From assembly GCA_021107915.1 (NCBI GenBank), contig JAIORY010000219.1:1-38469 (forward strand): a stretch of 38,469 nt of DNA. The letters run 5' to 3'. The stretch is from Bacteroidales bacterium (lineage in GTDB: Bacteria; Bacteroidota; Bacteroidia; Bacteroidales; JAIORY01). The translations under genes were made by a program, and so were the position numbers. Below the pieces are notes generated by a model. That model made no database searches. It had not been told where the DNA came from and saw only the letters and a list, made by a program, of their open reading frames with translations. Within the stretch, counting starts at the first letter, position 1; the number at the start of each line of letters is the position of its first letter. Of the stretch, positions 32,237-35,830 are shown piece by piece.

Positions 32237-35200
32237 CTAAACAACAATATTTATTATTCTTTTCGGAACGACAATTATTTTTCTCGGCGTTTTTCCCTCA
32301 ATCCATTTCTGAGCTTCTTTTGCTTCAAGTGCTGCTTTTTCTATTTCGTCTTTTGGCATGTCAACCGGTAACTCAAGTTTAAAACGCATTTTACCATTAA
32401 ACGAGACAGGATAAGTAAAAGTATTTTCTGCTACAAAATCTTTATTGAATTCGGGATACTTTGCCTTAGTGATGCTTTTTTCGTTACCGAGTAGTGACCA
32501 TAATTCTTCAGCAATATGAGGTGCATAAGATGAAACCAAAATTGCAAGCGGTTCCAAAATTTCTCTTTTGTTACATTTAAGATCAGAGAGTTCGTTTACG
32601 CAAATCATAAAAGTACTGACCGCCGTATTAAAAGAAAATCTTTCAATATCGTCCTTAATTTTTTTAATGGTTTTATGTAAAACTTTTAATTCTTCCTTTG
32701 AAGCTTTTGCATCTGAAACATCAAAATTATTTGATTCATTATGATATAATCGCCATAGTTTTTTAATAAATCTAAAAACTCCTTCTATACCTTTTGTGTC
32801 CCAAGGCTTGTGTGTTTCAAGTGGTCCAAGAAACATTTCATATAATCTGAGAGTATCTGCACCATATTCGTCAATTAAATAATCAGGATTTTGAACATTG
32901 TGTTTGGATTTTGACATTTTTTCGACCTCCCAGCCGCAAATATATTTCCCGTCTTCGAGAATAAATTTTACATCATTATATTCTGATCGCCACTTTTTAA
33001 ATTCATCAATATTCAAAATATCATTATCAACTAAATTGATATCAACATGTAGTGGAGTTGAAAATAATTGTCTGTCTTTTACACCATGCGAAACAAATAA
33101 TGGTTTGAGATCACGAACTTCGTGGTGATTAAAAATAACCCCTTTTTCTTTATGTTCAAGTGCTTCAATGGTTTCATCAATTACTGCTTCGATGTTTTCA
33201 ATAATATCTGCAATAGGAATAAGAATTAATTTTTTATTTGTTGTTTTGATGTACTCTTTATAAAAAGACTCAAGTTTTTCAAGTTTTTTCTGGCTTCTTA
33301 TCTCAACAATTAAATTCTCCTTTTTATTATAGAAATCAAATCTCCTGTGACCATCTTTATAATTTCTTATAAACTCATGTTCTAATTTGTTTTTTTTAAT
33401 GTACTCCCAAAGTAAATACTCGGCATATTTTTCCATATTTACTCTATAAACAAAACTGCTTCTTCCTTGTATTTTGCCTTGGTTAATAAGTTTTTTATAG
33501 GGTTCATCTTTACAAACCATTCCTATATCGAATAAAAATTTGTTCCAGAAACGAGAATAAATTAAATGCCCGGTTCCATGCTCGTCCCCTCCAATGTAGA
33601 GGTCAACATCTTGCCAGTATTGATTTGCTTCTTTCGAAAAATATTCTTTATTATTTTTAGGATCCATATAACGAAGATAATACCCGCTTGATCCTGCAAA
33701 GCCGGGCATGGTGTTGGTTTCGAGAGGATAGCCGTCTTTTGTTTTCCAGCTTTTAGCACGTGCCAAAGGTGGTTCTCCGCTTTTTGTCGGCAGATATTTA
33801 TCAACTTCGGGAAGTTTGAGGGGAAGTTCTTTTTCGTCCAGAACGTAAGGCACCCCATCTTTATAATAAACAGGAAACGGCTCGCCCCAATATCGTTGTC
33901 TGCTAAAAATTGCATCACGGAGCCGGTAATTAATTGTTCCGTAGCCTGCATTTTTTTCTTCAAGTTTTTTAATAACTGCTTTAATGGCATCTTTTACTTC
34001 CATCCCGTCAATAAAATCTGAATTCATCATTTTGCCGGTTTTGGCATCATAAGATTCTTCAGAAATATCACCACCCGAAACTACCTGAATAATTGGAATG
34101 TCAAAATGTTTTGCAAAAGCATAGTCGCGGCTATCGTGTGCCGGCACTGCCATAATTGCTCCTGTTCCGTATCCGGCAAGAACATAATCTGCAATCCAGA
34201 TAGGGATTTTTTTTCCGTTAAGGGGATTAATTCCATAAGCTCCTGTAAATACACCTGTGATATTTTTTACTTCTGCCATTCGTTCTCTTTCCGAACGGTT
34301 TTTAGCTCTGGTAACATACTCATCAACTTTTTCTTTCCTTTCGGGAGATGTAATTTTTTCAACAAGTTCGTGCTCAGGAGCAAGAACCATATATGTGGAA
34401 CCGAATAAAGTATCGGGGCGGGTTGTGAAAACGGAAACCCCACCTAAATCCTCCCCAACCCCACCTAAATCCTCCCCATAGGGGAGGACTTTGTTATCTA
34501 AATACTTTGTAATTTTATTAATTACTTCATCAGTATTTGTTACAACTTCATTATTAGAAAAACGGATGACTGAAAATCCAAGTTTATTTAAAATTTCAGT
34601 TCTTTCCTGATCTTCTTCAATTTGTGTATCATGAATTTTACCATCAATTTCAATAATGGTCATTTTTTCTAAACAAACGAAATCAACAATAAATTTATTA
34701 ATAACATGCTGTCTTCTAATTTTGTAGCCAATTTGTTTTTCTCTTAATCTTTCCCAAATAATTGATTCAGCTTCAGTTGGATTTTTCCTCGCTTCCTTAG
34801 CTTTTTCTTTTAATAAAGCCCACATTTGAGAATCAGTATTATAAAACGGAGGAATATCTTTTTCTACAAAATAAATAGAACTTTTTTCTCCCTCCCTATT
34901 GGGGAGGGTTGGGGAGGGGTGTTTTTTTTCCCCCTCCCCAATGGGGAGGGCCGGGGTGGGGTGAAATCTCACCATCGCTCCTTCGCTTCTACCTATCCAA
35001 TTTCTTTGAACTTCTTTTAACGAATCTGTCCAGTCAACTGTTTCCAGCCCGTCAAGTAATCTTTGAGCATAAGCGGTAATTCTCAACGACCATTGTTTCA
35101 TTAATTTTCGTTCAACAGCATGCCCGCCTCTTTCCGAACAACCGTCTTTCACCTCATCGTTTGCAAGAACGGTTCCTAAATCAGGACACCAGTTTACCAT

Positions 35201-35830
35201 GGTTTTTGAAATATATGCAAGACGATAATTTAACAATATTTCCTGTTGTTGTTTTTCGGTTTTCGATTTCCATTCTTCAGCCGAAAAAATTTCTGTTTCA
35301 TCACAAGCTGCATTAATATTTTTGTTTCCTGAAGTTTCAAAATCTTTTATTAGTGAGCCAATTGATTGAGCTTTATCCTTATTTTTATCATACCACGAAT
35401 TGAATAATTGAATAAAAACCCACTGAGTCCATTTGTAATAATGAGGATCGCAAGTTCTTACTTCCCTGTCCCAATCATAAGAAAAGCCAATATTATCAAG
35501 CTGCTCTCTGTATTTTTCAATATTTTTATTAGTTGTAATTTCAGGATGTGTTCCCGTTTGAATTGCATATTGTTCAGCCGGCAGACCATAAGCATCAAAT
35601 CCCATAGGATGTAGAACATTGAAACCTTCTAATCGTTTGTATCTTGAATAAATATCCGATGCAATATATCCTAATGGATGACCAACATGTAATCCTGCCC
35701 CCGAGGGATAAGGAAACATATCGAGAACATAATATTTAGGTTTGTTGTGATCGATTTCTGCTTTGTAGGTCTTATTTGTACTCCAGTACTTTTGCCATTT
35801 TTTTTCTATCTCTCTGAAGTTATATTCCAT
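32237..35830 (-). CDS. leuS: Leucine--tRNA ligase carrying two in-frame endonuclease-like insertions (1197 aa)
   Basis: [16 protein letters not shown] (HIGH), [18 protein letters not shown] and KMSKSKHNV (KMSKS) are all present and colinear. About 290 extra residues lie in two blocks. Confidence 0.9.
33101..33439 (-). other. In-frame degenerate DUF559-like module inside leuS (about aa 798-910), between FVYRV and LFVSHG, upstream of KMSKS
   Basis: [44 protein letters not shown]...[22 protein letters not shown] is colinear with the intact module at 34436-34963. Both have the same 24-residue W-to-DF spacing, IVEI against IIEI, and [13 protein letters not shown] against [12 protein letters not shown]. 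Confidence 0.55.
34436..34963 (-). mobile_element. In-frame DUF559 (Vsr-like PD-(D/E)xK endonuclease) cassette with GC-rich hairpin flanks inside leuS (about aa 290-464)
   Basis: [83 protein letters not shown] is a full DUF559 signature. Flanks are a 21-nt tandem CCCCACCTAAATCCTCCCCA(A) x2 (34438-34478) and hairpins at 34470-34488, 34890-34908 and 34932-34950. Confidence 0.8.

Follow-up and report, generated by a model that had tools for sequence, protein, structure and literature searches.

Rickettsia palindromic elements (RPEs) are said to be selfish DNA inserted in frame at surface-compatible sites of essential proteins, whose function is kept, and they reportedly encode no enzyme domain. 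Homing endonucleases of the Vsr-like ("EDxHD") class have been described in fractured genes and in group I introns (Dassa et al. 2009, PMC2677866); those of the I-Bth0305I type have open reading frames (ORFs) of their own, within inteins or introns or between the two halves of a gene, and do not stay in the host product. Leucyl-tRNA synthetase (LeuRS) carries a leucine-specific domain (LSD) that varies in length among LeuRS, sets the position of the KMSKS loop and modulates tRNA binding, with a hairpin (R595-R600) that contacts the tRNA (Yan et al. 2013, PMC3643597). The restriction-endonuclease-like (DUF559-like) fold has also been reused in the RNA-binding RAP proteins (10.1101/2023.06.05.543710). 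Here we analyze a stretch of 38,469 nucleotides from a Bacteroidales bacterium (assembly GCA_021107915.1, contig JAIORY010000219.1; hereafter the window), in which leuS, the gene for LeuRS, hosts two modules of the DUF559 type (PF04480). One, module 1, is intact; the other, block 2, is a 113-residue insert in the LSD and the subject of this report. Block 2 is homologous to DUF559 and has the DUF559/Vsr fold, and the reading we lean towards, with modest confidence, is that of an ancient DUF559-derived domain, domesticated as an LSD subdomain, maintained by selection at the level of the host and, in the window at least, without catalytic activity.

In-frame selfish insertions, Vsr-like homing endonucleases and variable synthetase insertion domains are all known kinds of element. 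Literature searches on DUF559, LeuRS insertions and in-frame palindromic elements returned no description of the domain or of in-frame DUF559 insertions in housekeeping genes. With DUF559 (NGO0050 of Neisseria gonorrhoeae, PDB 3hrl; a Vsr-like PD-(D/E)XK branch) the insert shares the fold, the order of secondary-structure elements, the helix-1 Glu, the Trp, the Asp of "DF" and the β3 Glu. Unlike DUF559, which reads E-x-D-G-x-x-H, it has E-x-K-(S/R)-Q (E-x-R in the window), has lost the helix Asp/Arg and the β4 Arg, has gained a C-terminal strand and a linker that returns the chain to its entry point, and is never free-standing, being found only inside LeuRS. Like the I-Bth0305I type, it is a Vsr-fold nuclease domain at a conserved site of an essential or housekeeping gene; unlike that type, it is a permanent translated part of the host enzyme and is without the His/Asp catalytic residues. 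RPE-like behavior is seen in the flanks of module 1 and in solo palindromes of two other leuS loci (L084 and L085, see below), whereas block 2, unlike RPEs, is a folded nuclease-derived domain with no palindromes left. It differs from RAP in having no RAP Pfam match and a net charge near zero. Finally, it resembles the idiosyncratic insertion domains of aminoacyl-tRNA synthetases in being a lineage-specific module in the length-variable LSD (Yan et al. 2013, PMC3643597), and differs from them in its identifiable foreign mobile-nuclease ancestry and in being polymorphic between close relatives.

The host ORF encodes 1197 residues, on which Pfam finds the class I core (tRNA-synt_1), the LeuRS editing domain, Anticodon_1 and DUF559; an insertion-free Bacteroidales LeuRS, such as that of the syntenic relative L001, has ~930. 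The features on which the comparison rests are the following.

32237..35830, minus strand: leuS, leucyl-tRNA synthetase, intact 1197-aa ORF hosting both DUF559-type modules (from the ORF list, translation and Pfam).
33098..33436, minus strand: block 2, 113-aa DUF559-derived Vsr-fold domain, M799-L911 (from alignment to insert-less relatives, homology and fold).
33053..33097, minus strand: insert-linked flank F912-P926, which differs as a whole block from FVSYNLKDKYETTA of insert-less alleles and travels with the insert (from alignments).
32906..32920, minus strand: KMSKS catalytic loop motif, aa 971-975, 60 residues downstream of the insert (from translation and alignment to LeuRS in PDB).

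The 113 residues stand in place of a 4-residue turn, GTNK, at the tip of the first β-hairpin of the LSD: the insert-less relatives P0013, P0016 and P0022 read FVYRVN-GTNK-FVS, and in the window M799-L911 aligns between FVYRVN and FVSHG. An earlier note on this DNA, made from the sequence alone, had recognized a block of this length but placed it at 33101-33439, which is shifted by one codon. Solved LeuRS structures match the window up to the NQG motif and then again from just before KMSKS; since they align only on both sides, block 2 lies inside the LSD. The LeuRS of Mycoplasma mobile has no LSD at all, the flanks being joined directly with only GKDG in its place. In E. coli, we take the equivalent of the insertion site to be the turn of the first LSD hairpin, FYYV-GENGE-RNWVS, and not the tRNA-contacting R595-R600 hairpin. 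At the junctions the ORF is continuous and shows no intein motifs, and the β-strands pass directly into the inserted domain. An AlphaFold2 model of aa 700-1030 has a predicted local distance difference test score (pLDDT, a measure of local confidence) of 88-98 over the insert and both junctions; in it, strand FVYRVN continues into helix 1 of the insert and strand FVS comes back.

The window sequence taken by itself makes a borderline case for homology to DUF559. Block 2 matches the Pfam profile at E 7e-4 with 19.8 bits, just under the gathering cut-off of 20.6 bits, although the match extends over positions 16-108 of 109; its BLASTP match to module 1 has an E of 0.015 and spans 42 residues, and no NCBIfam model recognizes the insert. 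Such scores could be taken for those of an ordinary lineage-specific LeuRS extension, unrelated to DUF559 and resembling it by chance, but the family statistics and the predicted fold are unambiguous. In a first sample of 16 LeuRS fragments that carry a homologous insert at this position (found with a query including the flanks), all 16 inserts match PF04480, the best at E 6e-11. A hidden Markov model (HMM) of the insert family finds module 1 of the same LeuRS (i-E 5e-12), the insert profile finds the solved DUF559 protein 3hrl (E 6.8e-8), and hhalign aligns the family to a profile built from 40 stand-alone DUF559 proteins, with a probability of 99.7% and E 1.5e-25 over 95 columns. The AlphaFold2 model of the insert (pLDDT 86.4, predicted template modeling score 0.79) has 3hrl as its best Foldseek match in PDB (template modeling score 0.79, root-mean-square deviation 2.1 Å, 91 columns), followed by the Vsr-like homing endonuclease I-Bth0305I (PDB 3r3p). 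Given that, in addition, the block is missing from most Bacteroidota LeuRS, the chance reading is refuted and we give it next to no credence.

The matches which the earlier note had drawn between the two modules are borne out by the profile-profile alignment: the W-to-DF spacing is 24 residues in both (W808-D832 and W359-D383), IVEI/IIEI, LILI/VIRF and the C-terminal helix are all recovered, and the changed core is confirmed, IEIDGKIH of module 1 aligning with VEIRSQKK of block 2. Vsr itself (1cw0) comes at Foldseek rank 44, with TMq 0.65 and E 0.67, and the inserts have no match to the Vsr family in Pfam or NCBIfam. Among the weaker Foldseek matches are Toxoplasma mitoribosome proteins, which we take to be of the RAP type; the inserts show no sequence match to the RAP Pfam family. 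No further DUF559 copies were found in the window by tblastn and HMM searches of its six-frame translation, which gave only the two modules.

The distribution of the insert was surveyed by scanning one genome per GTDB species, which gave 172 matching stretches; locus-level figures here and below refer to the best 80 of these. All 80 come from Bacteroidales or Bacteroidota metagenome-assembled genomes, with Lentimicrobiaceae, Rikenellaceae and Draconibacterium among the record titles, and in 80/80 the insert sits in LeuRS at one identical position, the ORF spanning roughly 1030-1110 aa where the contig carries the whole insert-bearing leuS. The insert is present in at least 80, and probably in about 170, other Bacteroidales species. 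It is nevertheless restricted to a minority of Bacteroidales and cannot be called canonical for Bacteroidota: of the 120 best LeuRS matches, 70 have the usual spacing of 77 residues from NQG to KMSKS, and only 15, plus the window (187), have one of 185-203 residues. The block is thus an insertion relative to most Bacteroidota LeuRS, as the earlier note had it; a domain common in Bacteroidota and without the Vsr/DUF559 fold would have spoken otherwise, and what we find is a minority of lineages and the fold itself. The nearest relatives of the window are L002, with an insert 88% identical and the remaining LeuRS 94% identical, and L003.

Block 2 also proves older than module 1, as had been suggested. 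It occupies the same site in 80/80 loci across deep LeuRS divergence, and a DUF559 of the module 1 type is found in only three of the 81 (the window, L003 and L014), its site being empty in L002, L004 and L001. The two modules were therefore inserted independently, block 2 long before module 1. A dependence of block 2 on module 1 as a pseudo-dimer, in analogy with the tandem proteins P0121 and P0123, was rejected because 77/80 relatives have block 2 alone. These two proteins and P0127, all stand-alone, consist of two or three tandem DUF559 copies of which only the last keeps E-x-D-G-x-x-H, and may be pseudo-dimeric nucleases. In a profile search of 1.84 billion representatives, the E-x-K subfamily gave no free-standing protein. 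The nearest matches other than LeuRS were ordinary DUF559 proteins (E ~1e-11 to 1e-13), with three higher-scoring exceptions, namely a frameshifted fragment of LeuRS and two proteins made up of several tandem DUF559 copies.

The strength of selection on the insert was compared with that on its host by the ratio of nonsynonymous to synonymous substitution rates (dN/dS; Nei-Gojobori, 24 pairs, with values taken from pairs with unsaturated dS). The ratio lies between 0.01 and 0.10 for the insert and between 0.02 and 0.09 for the remainder of LeuRS; for the window it is 0.074 against 0.069 in the comparison with L002, and 0.068 against 0.091 in that with L003. The insert is thus under purifying selection as strong as that on the rest of LeuRS. 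Nine positions are invariant in the 80 inserts (E2, K3, E6, W10, G29, F33, D34, E45 and L52) and nine further ones are at least 90% conserved, including D28, R31, F35, E53, K54, P74, D77 and F102. Many of these are charged (E2, K3, E6, D28, R31, D34, E45, E53, K54 and D77). Since the insert is conserved as strongly as LeuRS itself, it is not a decaying relic. The earlier note had called it degenerate and now inactivated. The first term does not fit the dN/dS values against L002, a pLDDT of 86-98, and an E...D...E set that is invariant and accompanied by a Lys in 68/80; the dead relic implied by the second is contradicted mainly by the dN/dS values.

The same data bear on a neutral passenger: a surface loop would tolerate a dead nuclease domain, which is conserved no further than is needed to keep LeuRS from misfolding and is heading for deletion. 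This would account for the loss of the DUF559 catalytic signature, for the R that the window has at the Lys/Asp position, for the many close relatives without the insert, and for the internal deletions of four lineages, which leave "EKMAEY..." scars and an insert-type flank; an LSD tolerant of large length changes (PMC3643597), to the point of being reduced to the GKDG of M. mobile, would offer it room. What it does not account for is a dN/dS equal to that of the catalytic body of an essential enzyme and far below the expectation for a passenger, nor the many charged residues, beside those of the hydrophobic core, among the (nearly) invariant positions, nor the retention of the insert over a LeuRS divergence of up to ~45% of the amino-acid sequence. 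We therefore regard a passenger as unlikely. A generic RNA-binding domain was also considered and found no support: the net charge of the insert averages -0.7 over the family and is 0 in the window, and because it is near zero such a role is not favored.

Catalytic columns of DUF559 were mapped onto the LeuRS inserts by the columns of the hhalign alignment. The residues concerned lie in the window as follows.

33419..33421, minus strand: E804 (insert position 6), the helix 1 Glu corresponding to the conserved Glu of DUF559 "AE..LW" (invariant in 80/80; hhalign).
33335..33337, minus strand: D832 (insert position 34), the Asp of "FDF" corresponding to the Asp of DUF559 "vDF" (invariant in 80/80; hhalign).
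33296..33304, minus strand: E843-I844-R845 (insert positions 45-47), E-x-R, where 68/80 relatives have E-x-K and DUF559 has E-x-D-G (codons and alignment).

The helix-1 Glu, the Trp, the "DF" Asp and the β3 Glu of DUF559 are kept as E6, W10, D34 and E45. The Asp of E-x-D-G is replaced at position 47 by Lys (68 of 80, including the nearest relatives L002 and L003), Asn (7, a rumen clade) or Arg (5, including the window), the His of G-x-x-H is variable (K/S/N), and the β4 Arg is lost in favor of Leu/Ile-Pro. Neither the D-G-x-x-H signature nor the β4 Arg is present in any of the 80 inserts, the window having R-S-Q-K-K where DUF559 has x-D-G-x-x-H, and all 80 having K/N/R-x-x-x-(K/S/N). The active site of Vsr consists of Asp51, His69 and Asp97, with a His as the general base, plus a Zn site (PMC2677866). 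Only Asp51 has a retained counterpart in the inserts, presumably D832 through the relationship of DUF559 with Vsr, and since the His position is K/S/N, His-dependent chemistry of the Vsr type is excluded in every copy. By its residues, however, the site appears remodeled and not eroded: the pattern E6, D34, E45-x-K47, found in 68/80 relatives, is that expected of a canonical PD-(D/E)XK nuclease, which has an Asp on β2, (D/E)-x-K on β3 and often a Glu on helix 1; seven relatives have E-x-N, and the window has E-x-R. Such a site may be catalytic or may be a former active site held by salt bridges. In lineages with N or R at position 47, dN/dS is still 0.015-0.105, which argues that in at least some of them it is not catalysis that selection maintains. 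The window copy, with its E-x-R, most likely acts non-catalytically.

Insert and host distances are correlated (Mantel r 0.64, p 0.001), the insert diverging ~1.5x faster than the host gene. Near-identical inserts in distant hosts were not found, no pair having an insert markedly more similar than its host gene, and with no such distance outliers lateral transfer was rejected. As the distances co-vary in this way, descent is mainly vertical and the origin old. At the same time, standard-hairpin alleles fall within insert-bearing clades in a neighbor-joining tree (360 flank columns, 100 bootstraps): L033 groups with P0023 (bootstrap 87%), eight insert-bearers with P0099 (100%), and L053, L059 and L066 with P0018 (93%). 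Directly downstream of LHVD, L033 and P0023 have ~96% nucleotide identity, yet they are totally different in the insert and the adjoining 14 residues (FVSKNIPDREKFSTP versus FVSYNLRKQYKTQA), and in sliding windows of nucleotide identity the downstream boundary is sharp. This 14-residue flank of the insert type is common to all insert-bearers. Insert and flank thus behave as a cassette exchanged by homologous recombination, each switch being either a gain or a loss.

Four lineages have short loops that retain the first residues of the insert, the insert-type flank, or both: P0044, which reads N-NFEKMAEYHDISGYDKEKNN-LFVSKN, P0046/P0054, P0111 and P0066. P0111 and P0046/P0054 are nested in an insert-bearing clade with support of 100% and 85%, respectively. 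These loops are remnants of internal deletions of the insert, and the domain is therefore dispensable in the four lineages. The description of block 2 as a fixed surface domain thus holds within lineages, but not between close relatives, which differ by its clean presence or absence, nor where only remnants are left.

Cassette behavior brings in a further explanation, namely an active or recently active homing endonuclease that does not splice and that would still work in the K47 lineages: embedded in LeuRS, it would cut or nick insert-less leuS at the FVYRVNGTNKFVS coding site and be copied in by recombinational repair with a short co-converted flank, and the E-x-R copy of the window would belong to a lineage that has reached the stage of the homing cycle at which the nuclease is inactivated. 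The target would be a conserved site of an essential gene, the PD-(D/E)XK set is complete in 68/80 species, and the domain is under purifying selection; the L033/P0023 pair, the nested standard hairpins with 87-100% bootstrap, the degenerate copies and the deletion remnants are all compatible with it, as is the second-best structural neighbor, I-Bth0305I, whose family is known from fractured genes and introns (PMC2677866). Purifying selection is still strong, however, where Lys47 has become N or R, and no copy has kept the His that serves Vsr-type enzymes as general base. Of the features by which homing elements are recognized, presence/absence polymorphism at a precise site is found (80/80 at the same site, with nested standard alleles), whereas the phylogenies of element and host are not discordant, insert and host distances co-varying with no similar inserts in distant hosts, and the element is neither removed from the host product nor a separate ORF. 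Nor did the 1.84 billion representatives hold free-standing copies of the subfamily, and the cassette switches may be losses as well as gains. All considered, homing of this kind has in our view a small probability. A stricter version is quite improbable: here the insert would be an intein-like selfish element without splicing, a harmless extra domain whose E/D/E-x-K site cuts insert-less leuS and drives conversion to the cassette, the window copy having been recently disabled.

For the origin of block 2, the comparison is with module 1, which lies upstream in the same gene.

34433..34960, minus strand: module 1, intact DUF559 (E-I-D-G-K-I-H), LeuRS aa ~291-466, inserted where the editing domain begins, ahead of VFTTRPDT (Pfam match over aa 341-444, E 3e-35).
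34471-34487, 34891-34907 and 34933-34949: CCTCCC..GGGAGG palindromes of module 1.
34436-34477: 21-nt tandem repeat of module 1.

GC-rich hairpin palindromes (CCTCCCCATAGGGGAGG and variants) and short tandem repeats flank module 1, all of them translated in frame. Its site is occupied in L003 by two tandem copies (with a gap of Ns) and in L014 by a copy with Asp changed to Asn in E-x-D, and the modules of the window and L003 are 87% identical with a dN/dS of 0.10; since L002, the closest relative, has nothing at this site, the element is a recent and polymorphic one. Comparable modules were found in other organisms. Intact DUF559 modules with "PSP..GEG" repeat-encoded flanks lie in frame in HsdS, RecG, QueA (twice) and an Eco57I-type methyltransferase (twice), and others are fused N-terminally to a HemN-like radical-SAM protein and an aldolase II (host proteins P0131, P0221, P0250, P0205, P0213, P0177 and P0138). 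In-frame insertion of DUF559 thus looks widespread and is apparently undescribed.

Block 2 shows none of these surroundings. Its GC content is 23-35%, matching the genome average of 31%, and a search for direct or inverted repeats, palindromes and GC-rich remnants around it gave only AT-rich chance matches, in agreement with the statement of the earlier note that no GC-rich flanks remain. Hairpin repeats of the type CCCTCCC..GGGGAGGG flank block 2 neither in the window nor in any of the 80 loci, and the window has the CCTCCC..GGGAGG motif nowhere but around module 1 and at nt 150-165. Two other leuS loci, however, have GC-rich palindromic segments in frame at the block 2 hairpin without a DUF559 module: in L085 the palindrome is CCCCTCCCTTGTGGGGAGGGG, also found on the flanks of module 1, and L084 has another. 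The LSD hairpin is therefore a recurrent, or tolerated, landing site for elements of the GC-rich-flanked type, which makes an older insertion of the same element type plausible, as had been proposed. The support is circumstantial; since no copy of block 2 retains the flanks, descent from a mobile DUF559 element of the module 1 type stays at the level of a plausible inference.

The palindromic inserts themselves (L085 2091-2202 and L084 634-751) encode peptides of the "SPLPCGEGQGE" type. In both loci leuS is split in two ORFs (L085 2-3047, L084 3-1596). A further gene, for a YhcG/DUF1016 PD-(D/E)XK nuclease in L085 (833-1807) and RhuM-like in L084, lies between the halves or upstream of them, and neither split leuS shows intein halves. 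Many LeuRS fragments in databases begin at the Met of the second half of such a split leuS.

The sequence of events that we favor for block 2 would have begun with a selfish, GC-rich-flanked DUF559 element like module 1 landing in a permissive surface loop. The element would then have been trimmed to the bare domain and its base composition adjusted to the host; a bare domain, a composition matching that of the host and co-divergence with the host gene are what block 2 shows. Retention would follow from its becoming an integral, rigidly attached subdomain of the LSD, itself the module that sets the position of the KMSKS loop. In the window, the E-x-R copy would serve as a non-catalytic structural or interaction surface, which LeuRS must keep folded and may exploit. 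Insert and 14-residue flank would meanwhile be gained or lost between leuS alleles as a cassette through homologous recombination, with deletion under way in some lineages.

Several observations weigh against this reading. A mean net charge of -0.7, and 0 in the window, gives no hint of a general nucleic-acid-binding surface. The set E6/D34/E45/K47, present in 68/80 as in an active PD-(D/E)XK nuclease, suggests that "non-catalytic" may be wrong for most of the family. The clean presence or absence in close relatives (L033 versus P0023; P0099 among eight insert-bearers), together with the four remnants, means that the domain is dispensable in some lineages, which fits a selfish or neutral element equally well. 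GC-rich flanks are found on no copy of block 2, so that its descent from the module 1 type is putative, and the host-level role of the insert is itself a proposal, drawn from sequence comparisons.

If the domesticated subdomain is the right reading, the locus shows how selfish nuclease elements turn into lasting components of core translation enzymes, with the whole series seen in one gene: a fresh module 1 with palindromic flanks, solo palindromes at the block 2 hairpin of relatives, an old, trimmed and strongly conserved block 2, and deletion remnants. A nuclease-fold domain with a canonical-looking site by the KMSKS loop in >80 species would point either to a hidden enzymatic or regulatory function of the synthetase or to a new, non-splicing form of homing persistence.

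Such insertions also break the automated annotation of essential genes, given that the deposited protein starts at the first residue of the insert. The only deposited annotation of the gene is a 399-aa "class I tRNA ligase family protein" (P0002, 32237-33436), which starts at M799; this public coding sequence looks truncated owing to the insertion, the 1197-aa ORF being uninterrupted in the window. In the syntenic, insert-less L001 (3719-6524), leuS is called as two overlapping ORFs of 441 and 507 aa, probably through a frameshift or an assembly error. Finally, the intergenic motif at 150-165 of the window is a solo GC-rich palindrome, CCTCCCGTAAGGGAGG, of the type that flanks module 1, in a contig of 31% GC, and could be a solo element or a terminator hairpin.

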